DNA of 61,108 nucleotides, counting the filler, from Dugesia japonica (lineage: Eukaryota), in NCBI GenBank assembly GCA_001938525.1. It is 5 parts of 5 records of this genome, joined end to end, with 100 filler letters (N's around TTAATTAATTAA, not from the genome) between each part and the next. Parts side by side here need not be neighbours in the genome. Positions count along the whole stretch, not along the records: positions 16,813 to 27,919 come from MQRL01637862.1; 4 more parts are not named here. One strand, 5' to 3'. The position numbers were made by a program, and so were the translations under genes. This document shows, piece after piece, positions 16,813 to 58,895 of this stretch (position 1 is the stretch's first letter; every line of letters begins with the position of its first letter). The notes beneath the pieces were generated by a model. The model did no database searches, was not told where the DNA came from, and was given only the letters and a program-made list of their open reading frames with translations.

Positions 16813-16814
16813 AT

Positions 16815-16950
16815 AAATATAGAGACTCCCCCCATCTCATGCAAAATATAGAGACTCCCTCCATCTCATGCAAAATATAGAGACTCTTACCATCTCATGC
16901 TAAATATTGAGACTCCTCTCATCTCATGCTAAATATAGAGACTTCCCTCG
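16815..16950 (+). repeat. 29-bp minisatellite, about 4.5 copies
   Basis: Unit approximately AATATAGAGACTCCYYCCATCTCATGCWA. Confidence 0.9.
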
Positions 16951-17042
16951 TCCCTTGTGTAATAAATTAATTAAATTTAATTTAATTATATTGAAAAGAT
17001 TTCTCCCGATTGAAATGAAAAAAATTTCCAACCAAAATATTA

Positions 17043-17146
17043 CTTTTGAATTTCCCACCAAAAAGATTTTTTTGAATTTCCCACCAAAAAGATTTTTTTT
17101 GAATTTCCCGCCAAAAAAAATTTTTAATTTCCCGCCAAAAAATTTT
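17043..17146 (+). repeat. Degenerate ~22-26-bp tandem repeat
   Basis: TTTGAATTTCCC(A/G)CCAAAAA repeated four times. Confidence 0.8.
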
Positions 17147-17452
17147 TGAAAAAAAATTTTTAAAAAAAAGGTAAAAAAGATAAAAAAAAGATAAAGAATA
17201 AAAAAATAGATCCGATCAAAAAAAATCTGATCCTATCAAAAATCAATAATCAATGAGATCAAAAATCAATAATTATCGATTAAAAAACGCAGCTACATTT
17301 ATACAAAATTCCTCTTGGAGAATAAACACATTCTTAGTGGTACATCCAGCAAAATACTGATTGCAAAAAAATAATTTTGATAATTTAAAACAAACTTTCA
17401 TGGTTATAAAAAGTCCTTTATATTTAAAATCTAGAAATCATTTTTGGCAATA

Positions 17453-17663
17453 CAGGATGTGCCAAAAGTTGTTTACTTCCTACCTAAAGTCCAAAATTGT
17501 GAACGCTCTGTCGCACAGTATTTAAAAGATATAACTTACAAAATGAAATCGAAATGATTACGGTGCAACTGAAATGTGATATAATAAAGGTTTTTTTTAA
17601 CTTTTTGTTACGTTTTGACATTTGTTCAGAAATGAGGTAGGAAGTTACTTTTGACCCACCCTT
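17453..17663. mobile_element. Tc1/mariner-type MITE
   Basis: TA-flanked imperfect TIRs: CAGGATGTGCCAAAAGT..ACTTCCTACCT and AGGTAGGAAGTTACTTTTGACCCACCCT. Confidence 0.7.
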
Positions 17664-17879
17664 TATAAATTGTTCTCTTCATTCTACACAATATATAAAC
17701 TACATATAATTCTTAATATAATTTGCATCATGTGGTTTTAATTTATTACGATTTATTTCACCCATTTGCAATCGATGATTTTCTGAAGACAATTTATATA
17801 CCTTACCGACGAAAACCGACTACAAATATTCATTTTCTTTGGAGTGAATTTTAAAATATATAATAAAAACAGTAAAACA

Positions 17880-19045
17880 CAATTTTTTCCTGAATGACTG
17901 AAATAACATTTATTAATGTATTGAAAATCTTTTCTATTTTCTTAATTTCAGCTACAGATAAACCAGTATTGAATTTATCTTTTAAATTAGAATCCAACGC
18001 TTTAAAACATTTGTTATATATCAGGGCCAAAAGTTTTTCCGACATGAGCTGAAAATCTTAAACACAAAATTTCGAGAACCTCAATTAGAGAAATGTTTTA
18101 ATTGTTTAATAATATTAAGTATAAAAATCTACGCGTATTTATTTATAAGCAATAAATACATGGTATAAAACTGAATACAATAGTTATTCTTGTGAGCGAA
18201 GGGTTGTATTTCGTAAATTAAATTTTTAACTATGTTTTTGCCAGAATGATAAAATGTTTTTGGCTTTAGTTAGAGTCGCATTGAAGACACATAAGAGCCG
18301 CAATTTGGCCACCATGGTTATGTACATTTGAAAACTAATAAAATCTACAAAACAATTATAATACTATTTAATAAAAAATTTAGTCAAGTTACAACGCTAA
18401 TTTAAAAATTCGATAATAAAATTATTTGTTACACAAATTCCAAAATTTAAAATTTACCTAACGTTTTAATCAATATTTAAAGAACTGCATATTATTAATT
18501 TACACCAAAAAGTCTGTTGGAAAATACTCCTTACAGTCATAATCTTGTAAATCCAAATATATCGTATCTTAAGATATTTTAAAAGAATTTATGTTTGATA
18601 AGTAGTTAAGTTTTAAAAATAGGTTTTTTGTTATAACATTTAATCAACTGTTTTGTAATAGTTTATCAGTATATATTCTATTTTTTAAACATGCAACAAA
18701 AGTGTAACAATTGATCCAGGATCCATATATTGTTGTATATTGATTTATACTAATAATGCATTAGCAAAAAGAAAAGTGAAATTAGTTGTGTGGGGGAAGA
18801 GAATCAAAGAACATATCCTGGAACTGTCTACTTATAAGTTATTTCAAATGTTGAATTACATAATAAAAACCAAAACTGATTCAAACATTTTTATTGAATA
18901 CCTGAGAAAATTCATAACAAGCGGTATACTGTATAAAAAGAGGACGAAAAGATTTTGTAGAGAAATGTTGAAAAAACTTGAAATTTTTTCTTAAAATATA
19001 ATGAGAAGAGTCTTACAATTTCTCAGTAGGTTGAACTCTTGACAT
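17880..19045 (-). CDS. Possible multi-exon host gene of unknown function
   Basis: AAAATG first exon MSRVQPTEK followed by a GTAAGA donor (19016); TTTTCAG acceptor at about 18050 opens a 55-codon exon; the middle exons could not be phased confidently. Confidence 0.3.
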
Positions 19046-20439
19046 TTTATATTTTAGTAATAATTAAATAATTTCTGATTTAATTCTAAATAAAATAATT
19101 AAAATAAATCAAGTAGTTTGCCAAGAGTTAGATTTATCTATAATAAAAATGCTCTATTTTAGATGGAAGTTTTGAAACATGACAATTTGCTTAAATGATN
19201 TAAATTGAAAAGAGCATCTTATTTTTTTAAGATGGAACTTGAAAAATGTTTTCATTTTTTCATTTAAATAAATTCAATTGAAAGATTAATTATAATATTT
19301 CTTGTTTAGGGAACCGTAAGCTATCATTCAGTTGATTATTAATGGTAAGAAATTATATGACATTCATTATTTACACGTCACTATTTATTTTGATTCTTTC
19401 GCATCAGTGGATGTCTAGCTCATGTATTTAATAATAAATGCTCTATAATAAATCGTTATTAATTTACAAACTTTAACTTTAGCTTCCTAACTTTAGCTAA
19501 AGAATATCCCAATTCATTTACAGTCAAATAAATGATTATTAAATAAATGATATTAAAATTCTATTTAATAACAAAGTTTTGATGATTTAGTTTAGTGTTG
19601 TCCAAACATTTTCTTGTTGCGATACACTTTGTAAAAAGAAATGTATTATCAAAATGAATTGTAAGTGTACAGAAAAAATATATAAATGAAAAAAGAACTA
19701 AGTATACAATAATTTCTCAAAAAAACATTTAAGTGAAATTTTAAAATTTAATTCTTAAAATTTTTAGTAATGAAAAACTTTATATTGATATTGACAAAAT
19801 AATTTAATTGTTTAAATACATTAATTTAAATAAAATTGAAATGTAAATAAAGCATAAGTATGTGTGTGATTGAACATTTGGAAAATGCAAATGTTTAGTA
19901 ACTACTTTATTATGTTTGTATGTTAATAAATATATGAAAGTAAAAGTTAATTCTTTGGAAATCCAAATAAAAATTGCATTTGTTGTATGTTACATATTTG
20001 AATTATGTTTGTTAAAAAATCAATATAAACTTAGTTATCACTCAGAAAATGAATTGATTTATTTTTTTATGTAAATGACTTATTTGTTAACGCAAAAATA
20101 AGAATTGGATTTTGTTTTAAAAATAAATGTATTATTTTTTGTAAAATTTTATTTTCTAAACATTGCGGCTAAATCGACCAAACAGAAAGTAATAGGTTTG
20201 CAAGTCAACATAGCAGAATTCATATTTGATGACTTATACAGTCTATACGGACCCTTACTTGATTGTTAGAGTAAGCTTTGTGCCGTGTTTACCCCGACAA
20301 TTTCATCTTACGAACCTTTGTTGTGTTCCCAACATAATTAAAGAAGATTATTTATTATTTCAAACAAATTCAACTGAACATAAGAAACTAATATTAATGT
20401 GAAAAATGAGCCTTTTTCCTTAGCGAATTATTTGTATAC

Positions 20440-20770
20440 AAGTCTGGATTGTTAAACATATTCGCATTTCTTCACCTATCTTTTTTGATTTTATTTTATT
20501 TGATTTCAATAAATTTCTGTCAGTGCTGATAAACCCAATTCACAAATGTACAACAATTCAAATGGCTGCACGTTTTTAATGACTTCGTAACTTAATTCAG
20601 GATATTGATTATGAAGTAAGATCCGAAGTTCTGATGATTCCTGCTGAACTAATGATCTTTTTAAAATTAAATCATTTTTCAAATCAATTAATACTTCTTT
20701 TTGTACATTTGTCAAATTGAAATCTGTGAAATGATAGATTTTCTGATAAAGAGCACAAAACAAAGAATTT
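20440..20770 (-). mobile_element. hAT (Buster/Charlie; ZBED5/SCAND3-like) transposase C-terminal fragment
   Basis: LIDLKNDLILK...QYPELS...PF...YICELGLSAL. Confidence 0.8.
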
Positions 20771-21584
20771 GAAGAATTATAAATTTCATACTGATTTGAA
20801 TTTTATTTCTTTTAAGTAATATTGTTAGTTTATTTAATAAATTTTCAATAAATAAATAAATTCGATACATAAATTTTTCCCGGACAATATCCCCCCGGAC
20901 AATTTCCACCGGAAAATTATTTAATTATACACTTGACACAAGCTCTTGCTGGCCACGCATCTCAACCTGGAAGAAAGACTTATTCAGACATAAAGGCTTG
21001 AATCTTCACTGTTGTACAAGACGTTGGAAATCGTAACAAATTGAACTATTTACGTGGCATTGCTCATAATTTAGGGTTTTAAATAGATTTTTGCATGCTT
21101 TCTTTTCTTTTATAAAAAATATAATGTAATACTAGTGTTGGGGTGAAACACCCGGTTTGAGAAGAAAAAGAAGGCCAGATGCCAAATCTGAAAATAATAG
21201 GGAAGGGGGGTCAAAAGGAAAATTTAAAATATAATGACTACAATTAATATAAAGATCAATGGAAAAGAAAAATGGAATGAAAAGTACGAATAAACGAATC
21301 CAACTCTCATCAATTCCAATAATTAAAGGAAATTATTAAAGTATTAATAAAAGATAAGAAAATGATCAGAAAATAATAATTAATTAATGAAGAAAAAGTT
21401 AATAAATTTATTGAAAAAAATAATTAAAATTAGGCAAAAATCAATTTTGGTAGAATATCTCCGCCCAAGAAAATCATGAAGACTAGGAAAAAGACAATAT
21501 GAAAAGCAAAGATTAAGGGGCAATAGGATTGTCTAACAAGAAAATTTCATCATTACCAGGAGATCCCCTACAAAGATTTGAAGT

Positions 21585-21845
21585 AGGAGCCAATAAGGGG
21601 CCAGAAAAGAAAAATAAAACAAAGACCGGAAAATCACATGGTGACTTAAAAATAGACACCAATAGAAGTTCTAAAAATCTTGGAAAAAATCTGAAAATTG
21701 GCACCATCGCCTATGAGAAGCAAGAATTTCAAATTAAAAATAGCAGGCCAATAGCGATGATGCCGGATTGTATCAAAAATGGTATACAAACCCCCCAAAA
21801 TTTAGAAGAAAAAAAGTAAAAAAATTTTCATTTACTCAGTGTAAA
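21585..21845 (+). promoter_or_regulatory. Putative Pol II promoter inside the 4.4-kb element
   Basis: Three CCAAT boxes (about 21590, 21659, 21749), TATA-like GTATACAAA at about 21782 and TCAGT at about 21836; the same CCAAT x3 + TATA layout is in the scaffold D relative. Confidence 0.45.
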
Positions 21846-22061
21846 TCATTGCGTAAAACGTTAACTCCGTTGCATAATACGACTTGTTGTGAACATAATT
21901 TGAGAAACGTTCAACAAAACATAAAAAACTTCAACACTTTCAGTGGTTTATTTATTGCGCGAAATTATTAAATACATTTTTGAAGATAAAAATCGTGACT
22001 TTCGGACCAAAAGGATAAATTATTCTATTTGAATTTTGCACTGTTATTATTCCCGTTGTAG

Positions 22062-22082
22062 CCAAAGGAAAATTATCTAAGA
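22062..22082 (+). other. Putative 21-nt leader mini-exon ending in A
   Basis: TTCCCGTTGTAG|CCAAAGGAAAATTATCTAAGA|GTAAGC. Confidence 0.45.
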
Positions 22083-22719
22083 GTAAGCATGTGTTATTTT
22101 ACTTTGTTTTCTAATTTCACGTAGAAATTTGTTTTATTTTGTAAAATTAATTATCAATAAATTAGTATCCACAATTTCTTTTATTTATTTGATTCACATA
22201 TTAAATGTTAAATGTGCTATTATAATGATTCGACTAACGATTTCCAATAATTTCAACAGGTTCAGATATTTATCGTTTTTCCCTATCTGTAATCGTGCCA
22301 CGAGAACTGCAGCTATAAATAGTTATTAATTAGTAACATCTAGCAGTCAACTCGATCTCGAAATTAACAATGAATCATCAATGAAACTTTATCACCAAAA
22401 TAGATGTTCTATCAAGTCATGTATTTACATACAGCTAAAAAGTAGAAACATCTCAGTTGAAATGCAGTATTTCATTAAGAAGAGACGCACTCACTAATCA
22501 CACATAGAGCTGGAAACATACACACATATTAAGGAATAGTTGAAATAGCCACATAAATTGTTCTTTTGTCATTGTGCCACGAAATAGTCCGAATTATATC
22601 ACTGATGATGCTTATCAATAAAGCGAGCGCTGATTATATTAGATCTTATCTCTAGGCGTTACTGAAAGCAATTTTTAATATCATTATTATATCTTCGGTT
22701 TGAACTATTAATATCCTAA

Positions 22720-22799
22720 ATATCATTATTATTATTATTATTATCATTAAATATTACTATTATCACTACGGATATCTTGTTTGATTTTATTGCTATTAC

Positions 22800-22852
<53 letters not shown>

Positions 22853-23410
22853 TTATTAACATCCTTAGAATATGTATTCTTATTGATTATCATCATTGAT
22901 TAATATTATTATTATATAACCATGTTATTAATATTACCAAGAGTAGTACGATTATGATAATTACTCATTAAAATGAATTATCCACACTCTTTATTCATAA
23001 TATTACCGCTATTTATCATTATCAACATTACTATTATGTCTTTTATTATTAAGGTTATGAGTATTATTCTAATTATTATGGAAATTATTTTAGTGTTATT
23101 CTTCAGTTTTATTATTGGTATTAGAAACACCACAGTTATTTATATTTCTGTTCACTAATATTGTCACTAATACTATTACTTTTACTAACACTATTAATTT
23201 TATGATTATTATTATTATCATTAACTGTTATTAGCAATGGGATCGTCATCAATTGTTATTATTGTTGTTATGGTTAGGATGGATGTGGGTATTATCCTTC
23301 TTATTAATATTCCGAGTAGTGTTTTTATTATTAGTATTCAAAGCACTGCTAGAATCATTCTCTTTAATACTACGAATTATCATTAATCTGACCATTATTT
23401 CTAGTATTGC
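22720..23410 (+). repeat. (ATT)n microsatellite and degenerate ATT-rich tract
   Basis: Pure (ATT)n at 22801-22850 inside a longer degenerate tract. Confidence 0.92.
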
Positions 23411-23535
23411 TAATACACTTTGTGTTCCTAACATCAGCGCATGGTGATTCAATAAGTGTCTTAATTTTTTGCAAGTGTCATCTGTAAATTTGTACATTAA
23501 AAAAATTATGATTTAGGACTCCAATTTTCATTACA

Positions 23536-23706
23536 ATGCCCGCTCTCTTGTTACAAACGTTAAGACTAATTTGTAGAGAGAGACGTAAAGCCTGGCGAAA
23601 GCAACTTTTAGCTCACATTCTCTCCATGGGAGCTATTGAGCATCCCTACGAAACGGATTTGCAGTGTTTCGCGAGATGTTCCCTTTGGAATACCAAGTTA
23701 ATTTAG
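23536..23706 (+). CDS. Cassette 1: 56-aa hypothetical protein
   Basis: ATTTAG acceptor at 23516; MPALLLQTLRLICRERRKAWRKQLLAH...KLI*; AATAAA at 23753. Confidence 0.4.
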   Translation: MPALLLQTLRLICRERRKAWRKQLLAHILSMGAIEHPYETDLQCFARCSLWNTKLI

Positions 23707-23814
23707 ATGACACTGAATAAGTTTTACTAATTTCTCGTAATGTGTTAAATTAAATAAACTTTATATATTTAGCAACTTAATGTCGATGTTTTTTCTTTTA
23801 TTCCAGCATTATAA

Positions 23815-24239
23815 ATGGAATATAAATGGGAGCTGCTTTTAGATCGGCGCACTGGTAGATTAATTTTCAAAAGATATAGGAACCCCCATGACAGAGATGC
23901 TGGGGTGTTGACAGGCTATTCCAATTTAACTATGAAAGAGGCCGATAATGAGTGACAATGGAATGAGGCAGAGCGTCGAGCTTTTTACGAGTGGAACGGC
24001 CCTGATCGAGCGCGAGAGGTGTACCATACCGCTACAGCTTTCCCCCCAATTAACAATGAGGAGATTCGAACCACAAATGAGTGGCGTGACTGTCCTTCTG
24101 TCGTACCAATATCTTCTGCCCACCTGCCCCCTTTCTCCGGTTTAAAAGCGTTGATAAAAACACTCTGTGGGATTTGAGGAATGATGCGAGTGGTGGTGCT
24201 TCTGAAAATGTCACTTCAGAGGACAATACTGAATCTTAG
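23815..24239 (+). pseudogene. Cassette 2: hypothetical protein with one stop and a possible frameshift
   Basis: Strong TTTTTTCTTTTATTCCAG acceptor at 23806; MEYKWELLLDRRTGRLIFKRY...DNE*QWNEAERRAFYEW...; AATAAA at 24280. Confidence 0.45.
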
Positions 24240-24453
24240 TATTGCTGAGTTTATTTTTTTGTGTTGTTTGTTTTGTAGTAATAAATACATATGCGTTTGA
24301 TTAAGTATTAATTAGTTCATTGTTGTTCTCACTCTAACAGCGTAATTCGGTACCTATTAGTTGTCTGTTGGGCATTCAGCTTATGGGATTGACATGAGTT
24401 TCTCATATTTTATTCTTTTAAACATAAACGACCTTATTATTTTGTCTTTTCAG

Positions 24454-24833
24454 TGCATTTTTCCTTAAATCGTTCCGCCGCTTCCACTAAAAAGCTGAGA
24501 GAGACGAGCAAAGACTCCGAAATGACGTGGGACCTCTACCGTCTCGCGAAGCCCCATTGGGAAGCTGACACCGCCTCGACTGAAAGTAAGGTAAGAAGGT
24601 ATAAAAGAAAGTGTGTGGCTTTCTGCAAAGAAATTGAAGCTTTGCATACTCAGGAAAGGCTGTGGAAGAGCCAACTGGAGTCTTTCGCCGAAGTTATCCG
24701 GTCCCTCCATGACCGTGAAAATAAACTGGTAAATTATATTATGGCTTTGAGGAAGGCAATGCTCTTGAGCCGCTTTTGGTTGATAAAGGCACCCAAACCT
24801 CACGGCCGTGACTTTTCAACCCTTCATGTTTAG
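24454..24833 (+). CDS. Cassette 3: ~126-aa coiled-coil protein, terminal exon starting TG
   Basis: TTTTGTCTTTTCAG acceptor ends at 24453; frame is open from TG-CAT to the stop; heptad-like segment. Confidence 0.55.
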
Positions 24834-24949
24834 TGTGTAAATACAAGTCTTCTCGAGTTGTACTGATTTGCTTTACAATAGTTATTAATTGATTGAATTT
24901 TAAAAGTGGTTAATCTCTCTTACATTTTAAAGGTTATTTTATTTTGTAG

Positions 24950-25266
24950 TGCCACAAATTCGTCTCCCCACAAGTCTTCGTAGGTGTCATCGTTTAATAC
25001 AGAAACTCTTACTAGAAAGACATATAAAACGTCGAAACGAGAGGGCCTTACTACGACATTTGACCCAGAGAAACCGCCTGATTAAAAAACTAAACCTCGT
25101 CGTCAAGAAACATGGCGATCTAGCTGAGAAAACAAAGCAGATATTGCAACACAAAATCCATTTCTTGCAAAGCTATATATTGGACTTATCTAGTCAATTA
25201 GAAAACGAGACGTGGATTCGTTTGGACGACAACGATGATGATGCCGCGTTTAATTTTTTTACCTGA
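24950..25266 (+). CDS. Cassette 4: ~105-aa basic coiled-coil protein with acidic tail, terminal exon starting TG
   Basis: TTATTTTATTTTGTAG acceptor ends at 24949; frame is open from TG-CCA; AATAAA at 25323. Confidence 0.55.
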
Positions 25267-26687
25267 AGAGCCTACCCAGTGGTTAGACCCGGGTGCTCTC
25301 GACTATATGTAATTTCAAATCAAATAAATTTTAGTTTTAATGAATTGTTATTTTAAGTGACGAATAACTGTAAAGGGAAAACATTGAACCCGAACCAAAG
25401 GTATAAGTGTGGATACCTCAAAAAAATGTTGGAGGTAAACCCCTCTATACCAAAATCTAAATAGGGACTTTAGATTAAATTCTTGAAAGGGTCACCTGAG
25501 GACTGTCTTTTCCCCAGCCACATTTTTCTAACTCAAACTCAGGTAGGACCCCAACACTAGAATAAACAAACAGCTTTTTCAGTAAAATTTTATTTTTATA
25601 TTTCAATTTTTATAAAGTTCTATTTTAATGTATAATATTTAAAATATTTTACTTTAATATTTATTTCGTCCGTGAAAAATTGTCCTAGAATCATTTTGTT
25701 TATTAAAATTTACTGATAAAATTTTTTTTCGGTTTTAATATTAAAAATAATCATTTAAAATAATTATAACTTGCAATTGAAAAGAAATAATAAAATAATT
25801 TTCCGGGGGATATTGTCCAGGGGAAAATTGTCCTAGAACCAGTTATTTTATTGCAAATTTCGAATTTTCTTCGCAACAAACCTGGAAATTTTCTTGACAC
25901 AGTTTGGACATCACTAATTTAGTTAAATTGTAATTAAACTAAGGAAATTAAAGTATAAACTATATGTTTCTAAAGTATGATCCTCAAAACTTAAAGTATT
26001 CGAATTTTTATTATATAGAAAGTTCTTAAATCCTTTAACTCTAGTTGCTTCTTTTATTTGGAAAATATGTATAAATACCACAATTATAAATACTATAATG
26101 GTATTTGTACAATGCTAAGCAGTTTAGCTTCAATAAGTTGTTTGCTGAGAACGTAAAAATATTTACTGTAAAATTAAACTTGACTTCGAAATAAAAAAAA
26201 GAAATATTAATGAAGTAAATAAATAAAATAAATAAAATAAATTTTTCTTAAATTTTTAATGTTTTTCCTTGAAGAATTTCTGCTATAAATTTAGTAGTTT
26301 CAATAATGTTTACTTGTGCAATAAAAGGATTTACAAAAATTGTAACCACAGGTTTAATAATAGTAAATCGCTTAAAACTACTTTCAAACGGTTCCAAAAG
26401 ATTTTTAAGATGAAGGATAAATAATATTTTCTTTAATTTGAAAATTTAATTGTTTTCATTATTTCAACACTTTCTCGCGGGACAAGGTTGATAATCCCTT
26501 GGTTAGAGTATATAAAATAAAAAATGTTTGTTGAAGTGTACAATAAATAAATCCAATAAATTTCTAGTAAAACCCAAAATCGTTTTTAAGAAATTATTTA
26601 ATTTTAATTTATTCAGATGGAATTTTAAAATATCGTTACTAGAAATGAAAATTAGATCCAGTTTGATAACGTTAACAGGAAATGACA

Positions 26688-26844
26688 ATGCGAGAATAAT
26701 TGTTGCACGTAACCATTAATCGTTTTTCAGAATTCATTTAAAATAAAAGCTTCGATCAAAATTTTGTTTTTTTTGTTTTTGATAATTAAATTATCAAAAA
26801 TAAAAAAAACAAATTTAGATCGAATCTTTAATTTTAATGAATTC
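26688..26844. repeat. Penelope pseudo-LTR fragment forming an imperfect palindrome
   Basis: 26730-26844 is self-complementary; the sequence matches 48672-48725, 50350-50580 and 39180-39232. Confidence 0.75.
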
Positions 26845-26924
26845 TTAATTATTTATGTTATAACTAGAAATTAGTAATAGTCAACTTTTATTAATAATTA
26901 TTAAAATTTATTAATTACAGAATT

Positions 26925-27075
26925 ATTCTCTATTTCTTTCTCTCTCTCTCTCATTCTTTTCTCTTCTTTCTTTTATCCTCTTTCCTTCTCCCCTTTTCTC
27001 TTTTTCCCTCTTTCTATTCTTTTCCGTCTCTCCTTCTCCTATTTTCTCTTTGTCTATTTCTTCTTCTCTTCTTTC
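26925..27075 (+). repeat. CT-rich low-complexity tract
   Basis: About 150 nt of almost pure pyrimidines. Confidence 0.9.
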
Positions 27076-27919
27076 AGTTTAAGTTTAACAAACATAACAA
27101 TCATTCCAATATCCCGCAATATCTATACAAATTTGTTTTAATTAATTATGTTTATTTTAATTTAGAATATGAATACTTTTAATAAAAACCAAGTAAACTA
27201 TGTTTGAAAAAAACTATATTATATCTCATTTAAATGGTTTTATGAAAATAATATGATAAATTTATATGCTTTTATAGCAACAATATAGAAAATNAAATAA
27301 TTATGAAAATAGGTCAATTTATTATCAATGTAAAAGTTAATTTAATGGTTTCTTTTGATTTAACCACTTGGCCTGTAGTAATGTGCTATGTACGTCCGCT
27401 GTTATATGTTCCAAATTTTGATACGGCGTGTAGAGTAAGTAGCTATTTTTAGTAAGTTCATTTTACAAACTCCAGTTAGAAAACCTATTCTACTACAAAA
27501 TTTATATAAAAAATATTTCAAATGTTTTCTCACTGAAAATAGCGTTGGATGTTTTTTGCCACGAAAAAATGACAATTTTTTGCGATGCTAGGTGGTTAAT
27601 GGTAATTATTTTATAAATTAAATTTTACAATTTAAGTTTTAAAACTATTTAATTATTTGATTTAAGTTAGGTTTTATAATAATTTAATAAAAATTTATTT
27701 ATATATATCCATCAATTATAATTCATTGATAATGATTTTATTTAATGATATAACATGTTTTTAATATTTACTAGATATCGATGAAACTTTTCAAATATTG
27801 ACTAAACATCTATGAAATTTATCAAAAATTATAATTCATATGCAAAATGAGTGCAATATAAAACATATGTACGTAACAGAACAAAGAAATGCATGAAATG
27901 TAGTAGTAGAATAGGTAAA

Positions 27920-47266: not shown

Positions 47267-47837
47267 TTAGGTGNCCTAAAAAGTTTCCGCGGTTTTGTCA
47301 TAGGTTAGTTTAAGTTTATATTACATATCATATATAAGATTAAAATTAAATTTTAAGACATATTAATAAAATCAATTTCTTAGAATAAGTAAATTAATTT
47401 TTTTATTGATATCATTTGTTTATACGAATTAGAGATGTCGCAAAAAATTCAAAATAAAGAAGAAATAATATGTGTTATGAAATTTTATTTTTTGAAGAAG
47501 GACTGGAAAGGAATCGTCCATTATGAGCTATTGGAACCTGGTCAAACAGTTGATTCTGTATTCTATTGTGATCANNNNNNNNNNNNNNNNNNNNNNNNNN
47601 NNNNNNNNNNNNNNNNNNNNNNNNNNNNNAAAAGGTGTCGTGTTCCATCACGACAACGCTCGACCACATACCTCTATAATGACTCGCAACAAATTGAAAG
47701 AACCTGGTTTGGAGGTGCTGATGCATCCAGCATATAGTCCAGACCTAGCACCATCGGACTACTATTTGTTTTTGTCTCTGCAAAACTTTCTTAATGGAGT
47801 TACCATGGCTTCAAGAGAGGACTGCGAAAGGTACCTG
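47267..47837 (+). mobile_element. mariner (DD34D) element, internally deleted
   Basis: TA-TTAGGTG..AAAAGTT left TIR; WKGIVHYELL, FHHDNARPH, HPAYSPDLAPSDYYLF. Confidence 0.93.
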
Positions 47838-47937
47838 NNNNNNNNNNNNNNNNNNNNNNNNNNNNNNNNNNNNNNNNNNNNTTAATTAATTAANNNNNNN
47901 NNNNNNNNNNNNNNNNNNNNNNNNNNNNNNNNNNNNN
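47838..47937. other. Artificial scaffold linker
   Basis: N44-TTAATTAATTAA-N44. Confidence 0.97.
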
Positions 47938-56430: not shown

Positions 56431-58394
56431 GCAAAATAATTAGGTCACTTAATTTTGGATTTAGTATTTAAGAATTCTTTTTGGAATTAAAAAGAGTTAA
56501 ATTTTGAGAAATTAAAATATTTTGGGATAGAATGAAATCATGTGAATTAAAAATTTTGAATTAATTTGATATTGACAAATTGCGAATTTTGAGGTAATTT
56601 TTATTTGCTTTCTTTTACATTGAAGTTTTGATAAATCAACTCCTTAAAAAATTGTATTTGTCACTTATTAGAATTTAATTTTATTTTTGTTGAAATTCAT
56701 TTATTGCTGCTCCTACAAAAGTAGACAAATAGTTAATTGATTATTTATTTATTGAAAGTTTAAAATCACTAAATCCTTGTTGGTACTGTAACTAAACAGC
56801 AGAGATTCAACATTCCATTATATGTATATATAAATTCAGCGATTCCCAAAAATTTTAATCCTTGTTTATTAGGATTTGACTGATGATCCTAAAGGTTAGT
56901 AAGCAATACTAAAACATATTTATCTAAAATTAAATAGTATCGACTTATTACTTAGTACGTCCCCTAAAATCAAATCAATTGTTTAGATTTTTTTGATTTG
57001 TATTAAATTGTATTTAATTGTTATACTTCACAAATTTTTTATTAAATAAACTGTCTTCGTCTTAATTGATATATTGTTATCTATTATATTTATTATTTAT
57101 AATAAATATATAAAACCTACGCGCATTTTTAGTATATTGGAGTCAGAATAAAACCATTGTTAGGTGTCTTTACCTACGAGAATCCAACAAAAGAAGGAGT
57201 CTGTGTGCTTTTCTAGAGATGCAGAGTCACCAGGATGTCTTTGAAAACTAACATGGTACAACCGTAAATTCTCACTGTTTTGACGAAAAGCTTCTAATCA
57301 TGGAGTAACCTATATTGCAGACTCAAAGTATTGGAAACCCAACAATTTTTTTGTTTTAAATTTTAGTTAAACATGTTTAATGATACTCTTTTATGAAACA
57401 AATAATGATACTGAATTATCGAGTGTTGACTCAAAATGTTTTTTATTTGTTAAATATTACTGTGTATGTATTGCATCATATCAGCAAATTGTGATTTTAC
57501 GAAAAATTTCTTTGAAATATTGCGATTAAATATGCATATGCCTTAACTTTTTAAAATTATTTTATTTTCGTTATGCAAATGTTGTTATTATCATTTTAAT
57601 TCTCAAAAATGTTATTGGACATCAAGACTAGTGAATACAATTACTCAAGAATTATACTACCCATGTTATCGAGTTACTCGAAATTTGCCCATTACTAAAG
57701 ATAACCAGGATTTTATCCCTTAGACACCAGAGAAAAACTGTCCAACTTTATTTGGCAATACTTGTTAGGGCTATCTAGTAGCTATTAGTGGAATTTAACA
57801 CCAAAGACAACTACATAATCCCAGAATGTGCTGTTAATTTTTGTTTATTTTAACATAAAATTTATCAATGATGTTGTTAATGTACCCTCGCGAGTATCCT
57901 GCAAAATTCCCGAGTTATCAAGATACCCGGGATTGCATTTCCTATTGAAGACTATTATTATAAAAAGTAGTTTTGTAATTGGTATGATAATTGATAATAC
58001 TAAAATGCTAACAAATTATTTTGGATACCTTAAAAAATAAATTTCACATTAAAAAAATGTAAATATTATTACGCAAAAAGAAATCATATTACCTAATATT
58101 TTATAATGAAAAAATAAAATTAAAATGAAAATATTTTAAAAGTAAAACAATAAATTAAACTGTAGCCTTAACGAAATAAATGTTACTCAATTAATCGATT
58201 ATATTTTACAAAAATATTATATAAATGATGAAAATGTGACAAATATATAAGAAATATTAAGTTGGAATTTTCAATGGAACTAATGTTTTATTAGATCAAA
58301 TAAAAATAATATATGTGTTTGATTTTAAAAAAATAAGGATGAAAATTTTCAAGTTTTAATAAACAAAATTTTAAATAAATTATATTTTAAACTA

Positions 58395-58895
58395 ATGCAG
58401 CCTTTTAATTTTCAAAATTATCAAGGATCGTCTAGCAGTACTTTCAATTTTTCCAAAACCATATCCGATGTTTTCAGTGATACTGAAACTATTAAATGTG
58501 AATATTGTGATAATCTTATAGATAAAAAAGCATCTAAATGTCAAGTTTGTAATTCTTCAATTCATGAAATGCCAAGTAGAAAAGTTTTTGTAAAAAATGA
58601 AACATCCAAAGGATTTAAAGCAGTTCAGATGAGTAATATGGGAAAACAAAACCCATTTAATAAATTGCTAACCAGCAAAAAGGATTGGGAGTGTCATAAT
58701 TGCCACACTATCAATTCGAAAAATGTTTTATATTGTGAAAAATGTTCATGTAAAAAACGCTATTCGAAAATAGAAAGCACCATTCCAATTAAGAAAGCAA
58801 GATTAGATTGTGAGTGGACATGTAGCATGTGTAGTTTTGTAAATAGGAATTCTTATTATAACTGTGAAATTTGTTTCCAAGGTCGGAGTAGTTAA
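58395..58895 (+). CDS. Small RanBP2-type (zf-RanBP) zinc-finger protein, 166 aa
   Basis: Intact ORF; WECHNCHTINSKNVLYCEKC and WTCSMCSFVNRNSYYNCEIC fit W-x-C-x2-C-x3-N-x6-C-x2-C; a third C4 finger CEYC-x10-CQVC. Confidence 0.85.
   Translation: MQPFNFQNYQGSSSSTFNFSKTISDVFSDTETIKCEYCDNLIDKKASKCQVCNSSIHEMPSRKVFVKNETSKGFKAVQMSNMGKQNPFNKLLTSKKDWECHNCHTINSKNVLYCEKCSCKKRYSKIESTIPIKKARLDCEWTCSMCSFVNRNSYYNCEICFQGRSS

Follow-up and report, generated by a model that had tools for sequence, protein, structure and literature searches.

The window (the whole stretch of DNA analysed, 61,108 nucleotides from Dugesia japonica) consists of five AT-rich scaffolds chained by N-linkers, and the splice motifs described here lie in the piece at 16813–27919. 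This piece holds a 4,421 bp inserted element, with a short leader exon and several small ORFs inside it, that is flanked by the two parts of another, shorter element. The features that define the insertion are:

20869–20928 (no strand assigned): left inverted-repeat arm of the older, short host element, 82% complementary to 25787–25846 and of high summed depth in DNA contigs
20925–21079 (+): broken coding remnant whose translation ends in YLRGIAHNLGF and a stop, which we take to resemble the C-terminus of a MULE transposase
21132–21135 (+): left copy of the target-site duplication, CTAG
21136–25556 (+): inserted element, 4,421 bp, with ends TGTTG...CAACA
21136–21169 (+): left imperfect terminal inverted repeat
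25448–25533 (+): subterminal block common to many copies, with a summed depth of related contigs (which is not a copy number) of 24,184 (25448–25490) and 15,687, against 459 in 25534–25576
25523–25556 (+): right imperfect terminal inverted repeat, pairing with 21136–21169
25557–25560 (+): right copy of the target-site duplication, CTAG
25787–25846 (no strand assigned): right inverted-repeat arm of the host element, the pair of 20869–20928

Two contigs from DNA run X1 represent the empty site. In one, just 12 letters separate 21119 from 25556 and CTAG is present once; in the other, 21126 is joined to 25552. These contigs, the element ends and the CTAG duplication bear out the original prediction that the site lies inside a mobile element. 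The first 9 bp of the terminal inverted repeat are perfect and 28 of the 37 aligned columns match; the score of this 34-bp repeat was reached in none of 500 shuffles, and short direct terminal repeats within the element were not above shuffles. The flanking parts, 20869–21135 and 25557–25846, belong to an abundant, short element of roughly 550 bp, the ends of which are present in poly(A) reads. The 4.4-kb element jumped into this older, short inverted-repeat element. A mitochondrial origin of the segment 21080–21860 was rejected, as it has no open frame under table 5. No Rfam match was found in 16813–27919, and the start of this scaffold is occupied by short tandem arrays with 29-bp units (16814–16964) and 26–27-bp units (17022–17125).

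Other mobile element remains are found elsewhere in the window. The segment 467–13662 is a degraded element that we take to be Polinton/Maverick-like, with an integrase (Pfam rve, E 3e-8) and fragments that are presumably PLA2-like, protease-like and polymerase-like. Between 33981 and 54698 there are several decayed pol fragments on both strands and on different scaffolds; they are about 70% alike and presumably Gypsy-like. A fragment at 47496–47885 with the motifs HHDNARPH and YSPDLAPSDY is, we assume, part of a mariner-like transposase. On the minus strand, a 188-codon frame at 58329–58895 has repeated Cys pairs that we take to resemble RanBP2-type zinc fingers, with weak Pfam matches.

The ends of the 4,421 bp element are compatible with more than one kind of carrier. 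Gypsy-type LTRs have TG...CA (TGTNR) ends with a short inverted repeat and generate a 4–6 bp target duplication, and the element shows each of these. According to the available part of their description, the DNA transposons Ginger1 and Ginger2 are also defined by TGTNR ends and a 4-bp duplication, are 2.6–7 kb long and may hold introns (PMC2836005). The element resembles them in its ends, duplication and size, and its inverted repeat extends 34 bp, such that the same gene layout could be the cargo of a non-autonomous Ginger-like transposon. We consider this improbable. The same source gives Ginger TIRs of about 40–270 bp and targets of CCGG/CCGT or RTATAY (PMC2836005), whereas the repeat here is shorter and imperfect, and the target is CTAG, from a single site. 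None of seven scanned ORFs of the element matched a transposase or rve in Pfam, unlike Ginger with its integrase-like transposase, although non-autonomous copies would equally lack one. The termini are also among the least shared parts, with a summed depth of 459 compared with up to 76,270 for internal blocks. As Ginger TIR length and target preference are not matched, a transposase is absent and the termini are less shared than internal blocks, we read the element as the probable solo LTR of a Gypsy-type retrotransposon. As to the carrier alone, we hold the solo LTR to be the probable identity and a Ginger-like element a possible but distinctly weaker one. No PBS, polypurine tract or internal gag-pol was seen beside the element ends among the matches listed.

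Within the element, the features that bear on gene expression, all on the plus strand, are:

21849–21964 (+): likely promoter, a CpG-rich patch in which we take TCAGT at 21940 to be initiator-like and other motifs to be bZIP-like and E2F-like
22062–22082 (+): leader exon, 21 nt, non-coding, following TAG, with last base A and the donor GTAAGC at 22083
23536–23706 (+): ORF D, 56 aa, with its own ATG, matching no family
23807–24177 (+): third candidate exon, behind a strong acceptor at 23806, with ORF C, which has its own ATG at 23815 and is interrupted by a stop at 23953–23955
24454–24833 (+): exon and ORF A, with acceptor AG at 24452–24453 followed by TG, 126 codons from A/TG
24586–24591 (+): donor-like AAA/GTAAGG in ORF A, phase 1, score 7/9, for which the exon would end in A
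24950–25266 (+): exon and ORF B, with acceptor AG at 24948–24949 followed by TG, 105 codons from A/TG
25323–25328 (+): AATAAA behind ORF B, likely a poly(A) signal

The 21-nt exon with its acceptor, GTAAGC donor and final A at 22082 was found as the original prediction described it, and the ORF at 24950 indeed contains no in-frame ATG. There is no ATG in 21830–22082 and the frame upstream of the donor at 22083 is open for just 21 codons, so the leader itself is non-coding. It lies in a region, 21736–22335, with a CpG o/e of 1.4–1.6. Two strong acceptors followed by long ORFs had also been proposed. Both acceptors are followed by TG in frame, but the one at 24949 is less clean than proposed, with a rival AG 17 nt upstream at 24931–24932, and "long" is generous for products of 126 and 105 aa. 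The further statement that unspliced RNA would lack these starts holds for ORF B but not for ORF A, which has in-frame ATGs at 24522, 24741 and 24759, the first well placed with A at -3. Because the third strong acceptor, at 23806, precedes an ORF with its own ATG and an internal stop, the element may hold several small genes as a cassette served by a single leader. A further AATAAA is found after ORF C, at 24280.

When both strands of the whole window were screened with a loose acceptor filter, 226 acceptor-like YAG sites were returned. TG follows directly in 15, and a frame of at least 60 aa from A/TG in only two, which are those at 24453 and 24949. A stricter filter retained 24453 only, the 24949 acceptor being dropped because of the other AG 17 nt upstream, and when the element was resampled 2000 times under a local Markov model, one resample gave such a site by this filter. 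Both acceptors look real. Trans-splicing of a flatworm-type leader with AUG at its end onto the 24453 and 24949 acceptors was considered and rejected, as the resulting frames stop after 4 and 15 codons.

Comparison with related genomic copies revealed steps in similarity at both acceptors. In DNA run X2, at 80% likeness, the summed depth increases from 44 at 24437–24446 to 161.5 at 24460 (about 4-fold) at the ORF A acceptor, and from 19 over 24889–24931 to 299–460 at 24956–24966 (about 15-fold) at the ORF B acceptor. The same steps are present in DNA run X16, from 14.6 to 91.6 and from 5.3 to 105.5, respectively. By this measure, the sequence that genomic copies conserve starts within a few bases of each acceptor. 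The leader and promoter region is likewise more shared, with depths of 31.8 and 56.8 over 21844–22191 compared with 4–9 over 22192–22713, in the intron. The TAG that precedes the leader reads CAG in all three contigs, which keeps the YAG, and no difference in 22060–22109 was seen among the 40 of 419 matches listed. Nor was there any difference at the junction bases A/GT or AG/TG among the 40 of 419 and 40 of 280 matches listed.

The relatives of ORF A differ in the manner of coding sequence. Their 40 differences comprise 10 at first, 6 at second and 24 at third codon positions and include no gaps (p=5e-4), in a count made by eye over three non-overlapping 30-letter flanks around the most shared block of the ORF (24674–24716, summed depth 76,270). 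These flanks represent three of six X2 matches; of the remaining three, one overlapped and two lay outside the ORF or were not in register. The excess at third positions is as expected under purifying selection. Of the 12 listed differences in which the relatives nearly unanimously depart from the window copy, 11 fall at positions 1 or 2 (p=0.054), which suggests that the window copy is decaying. The 16 differences listed for ORF B are even across codon positions (5, 5 and 6), so the evidence for constraint on this ORF is its depth. A T-run near 25254 differs between copies, and the C-terminus of ORF B is therefore variable among them.

A reading in which AT-rich, decayed repeat DNA has produced the splice signals by chance and the ORFs have no function appears very unlikely in view of the third-position bias in ORF A relatives, the conservation edges at both acceptors and the enrichment to two of 226 sites. 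In its favour are the absence of homologues from all protein collections searched and of RNA on the window subfamily, the latter at near-zero coverage.

Other shared blocks are present in the element. One, at 21496–21843 (depths 3,951 and 1,127), overlaps a 100-codon open frame that has no family match. Another, at 25233–25318, is highly shared (5,521 and 10,928) and covers the part where ORF B ends in an acidic stretch. In contigs it is connected with the conserved ORF A block at a different distance, a hint that there are related families with another set of genes.

The ATG at 24522 introduces a different way of reading the same exons, in which A/TG is incidental or internal. ORF A would begin at 24522, and ORF B would be entered in frame from the donor at 24585/24586, or from some other upstream coding exon, to give a fusion protein. 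This ATG has a good context and sits in a block shared about 8 times as widely as the opening codons of ORF A (1,992 versus 235), and the AAA/GTAAGG donor, being phase 1 and ending in A, could feed ORF B in frame. However, conservation begins at the ORF A acceptor, 68 nt ahead of this ATG, and the fusion would cut out 24674–24759, the most shared part of ORF A. TG is in phase after both acceptors, and apart from the 24586 donor there is no donor scoring at least 6/9 and ending in A that has an upstream in-frame ATG. On balance, we regard a fusion or internal A/TG as somewhat unlikely. Its bearing on what had been predicted is twofold. The view that one promoter and leader license several proteins retains the shared, ATG-less leader region, the conserved acceptor edges and the coding-like ORF A in its favour, but the 24586 donor rivals the leader as a source for ORF B. 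A longer upstream coding exon, named in advance as the finding that would make the ATG internal, is not provided by the leader, which is non-coding, but the 24586 donor could provide it by making the ATG of ORF A the start.

RNA from this subfamily is scarce. Three raw RNA runs (X8, X9 and X12) compared with the whole element contain neither a 22082–24454 nor a 22082–24950 joint, with almost no coverage: 51, 197 and 56 reads on the element from the 6%, 25% and 25% of each run that was read. The depth in these runs was 0–0.2 over 21844–22713 and 0 over both 23932–24627 and 24802–25323, and the element subfamily is close to silent in these samples. At this near-zero coverage, no RNA starts or ends were detected at the promoter or poly(A) motifs. 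The contig run X15, which may be of RNA, includes just two records on the element. In the poly(A) run X10, queried with a reference that excludes the leader, there are 59 partial reads, in both directions, which peak in ORF A and reach ORF B. Distant relatives of ORF A and ORF B are thus transcribed at a low level, while the window copy is likely decaying and near silent.

No homologue of ORF A was found among proteins near its length, among longer ones or in a HMMER search of 1.84 billion sequences, and none of ORF B in the protein collections searched. Metagenome and viral loci, phages and PHROGs also returned no match; a metagenome pattern match (L001) covered only 10 codons, with an E of 0.06, and was rejected as chance. 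Sequence matches in the PDB had E values of 0.1–0.4 only, and all Pfam matches were below curated cut-offs, the best being a generic coiled-coil match to BRE1 (23.8 versus 27.9 bits). A single-sequence model of the ORF A product is dominated by one 73-residue helix at residues 40–112, with pLDDT of 92–98 for 51–110 and a pTM of 0.42. The products of ORF A and ORF B are both basic, and on the model the former is likely a basic long-helix (coiled-coil) regulator or adaptor. The two show no detectable similarity, and comparison did not support paralogy of ORFs A and B or of B and D. A conserved, previously unrecognised protein family in an abundant repeat is a firmer result than the two-way start-codon switch.

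The switch is nonetheless plausible. The arrangement that we place at about even odds is a solo-LTR element in which the leader, ending in A at 22082, is spliced to TG at either 24454 or 24950 and so makes the start codon of either protein. Under this arrangement, transcription would start from a promoter near 21940 and yield a non-coding leader, the donor after 22082 would join one or the other acceptor to generate an AUG with A at -3, and the transcript would end by polyadenylation near 25323. The choice of acceptor would set which small accessory protein is made, the likely purpose being economy and control, and genome-length unspliced RNA could not initiate ORF B at all. Should the unit be the U3 of an LTR, the introns would be passed on in genome-length RNA that is left unspliced, and the accessory proteins would come from spliced transcripts of the internal promoter. 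A more far-reaching version, which we put forward only tentatively, is a high-copy giant-LTR family with a virus-like accessory unit that contains introns, in which at least two unrelated small proteins would receive the A of their start codon from the same non-coding leader, an adenovirus- or EBV-style switch run by a retrotransposon inside its LTR, with proteins that are absent from the collections searched and kept even in solo LTRs.

If this arrangement is correct, splice-made start codons would be extended from single genes to a switch between two proteins, and a very abundant repeat would have carried an unannotated, conserved protein family across an animal genome. ORF B would be missed altogether by gene finders that rely on an ATG in the genome, and it would have to be asked how a terminal repeat that passes through reverse transcription keeps its introns. 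Our literature search, which did not extend to Repbase or most subscription journals, found neither a description of this element nor a case in an LTR or transposon where a single donor provides the start of two different proteins.

Genes inside LTRs are known from other retroelements, namely MMTV sag, the lentiviral nef that overlaps U3 and the accessory genes of foamy viruses, and accessory protein genes carried in LTRs survive in solo LTRs. The element differs from these in that its 4.4-kb unit, whose identity as an LTR is itself inferred, contains introns and as many as four ORFs.

LTRs of this size have precedents. Plant Ogre elements have LTRs of 1.9–6.5 kb, and the planarian Burro elements are giant Gypsy elements that exceed 30 kb overall, of which up to 25 kb is internal sequence (PMC6431247), from which, in the accessible part of that account, multi-kb LTRs are implied rather than stated for Burro. 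Compared by description only, the element is like Burro and Ogre in its probable multi-kb LTR, thousands of copies, accessory ORFs and AT-rich host, but the same text, as far as it is available, does not describe an ORF inside the LTR for either (PMC6431247).

The principle of a start codon made by splicing is already known, from gypsy env and from EBV EBNA-LP. The suggestion that the switch might be undescribed can thus apply at most to the two-protein layout, as both splice-made start codons and acceptor choice have been published. In Drosophila gypsy, as outlined in the available part of the source, the env start codon takes AT from the donor and G from the acceptor (PMC2585583), and the env start codon is also splice-made in errantiviruses of the springer subclade, according to the available portion of a preprint (bioRxiv 10.1101/2023.08.03.551782). 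As in gypsy env, the end of the leader and the start of each acceptor exon spell ATG in frame with an ORF, and we propose that here too a retroelement gene has a splice-made start codon that unspliced RNA lacks. From what these sources describe, the element differs in that the split is A/TG and one donor serves two small candidate ORFs. The ORFs are also not env-like, as neither matches a family and ORF A is predicted to be one long helix, and the TG...CA unit is without gag-pol.

The choice between acceptors has its counterpart in EBV, where the AUG of EBNA-LP is made by W1/W1' acceptor choice, as reported in the available sections of two accounts (PMC12451641; bioRxiv 10.1101/176099). There is no sequence relationship between EBNA-LP and the element. 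In the arrangement proposed here, as in EBNA-LP, the 3' splice choice from a promoter exon would decide whether an AUG is formed, and hence the protein. While EBV, on those accounts, makes the AUG with one of two acceptors, both acceptors of the element would make one, in unrelated frames about 500 nt apart.
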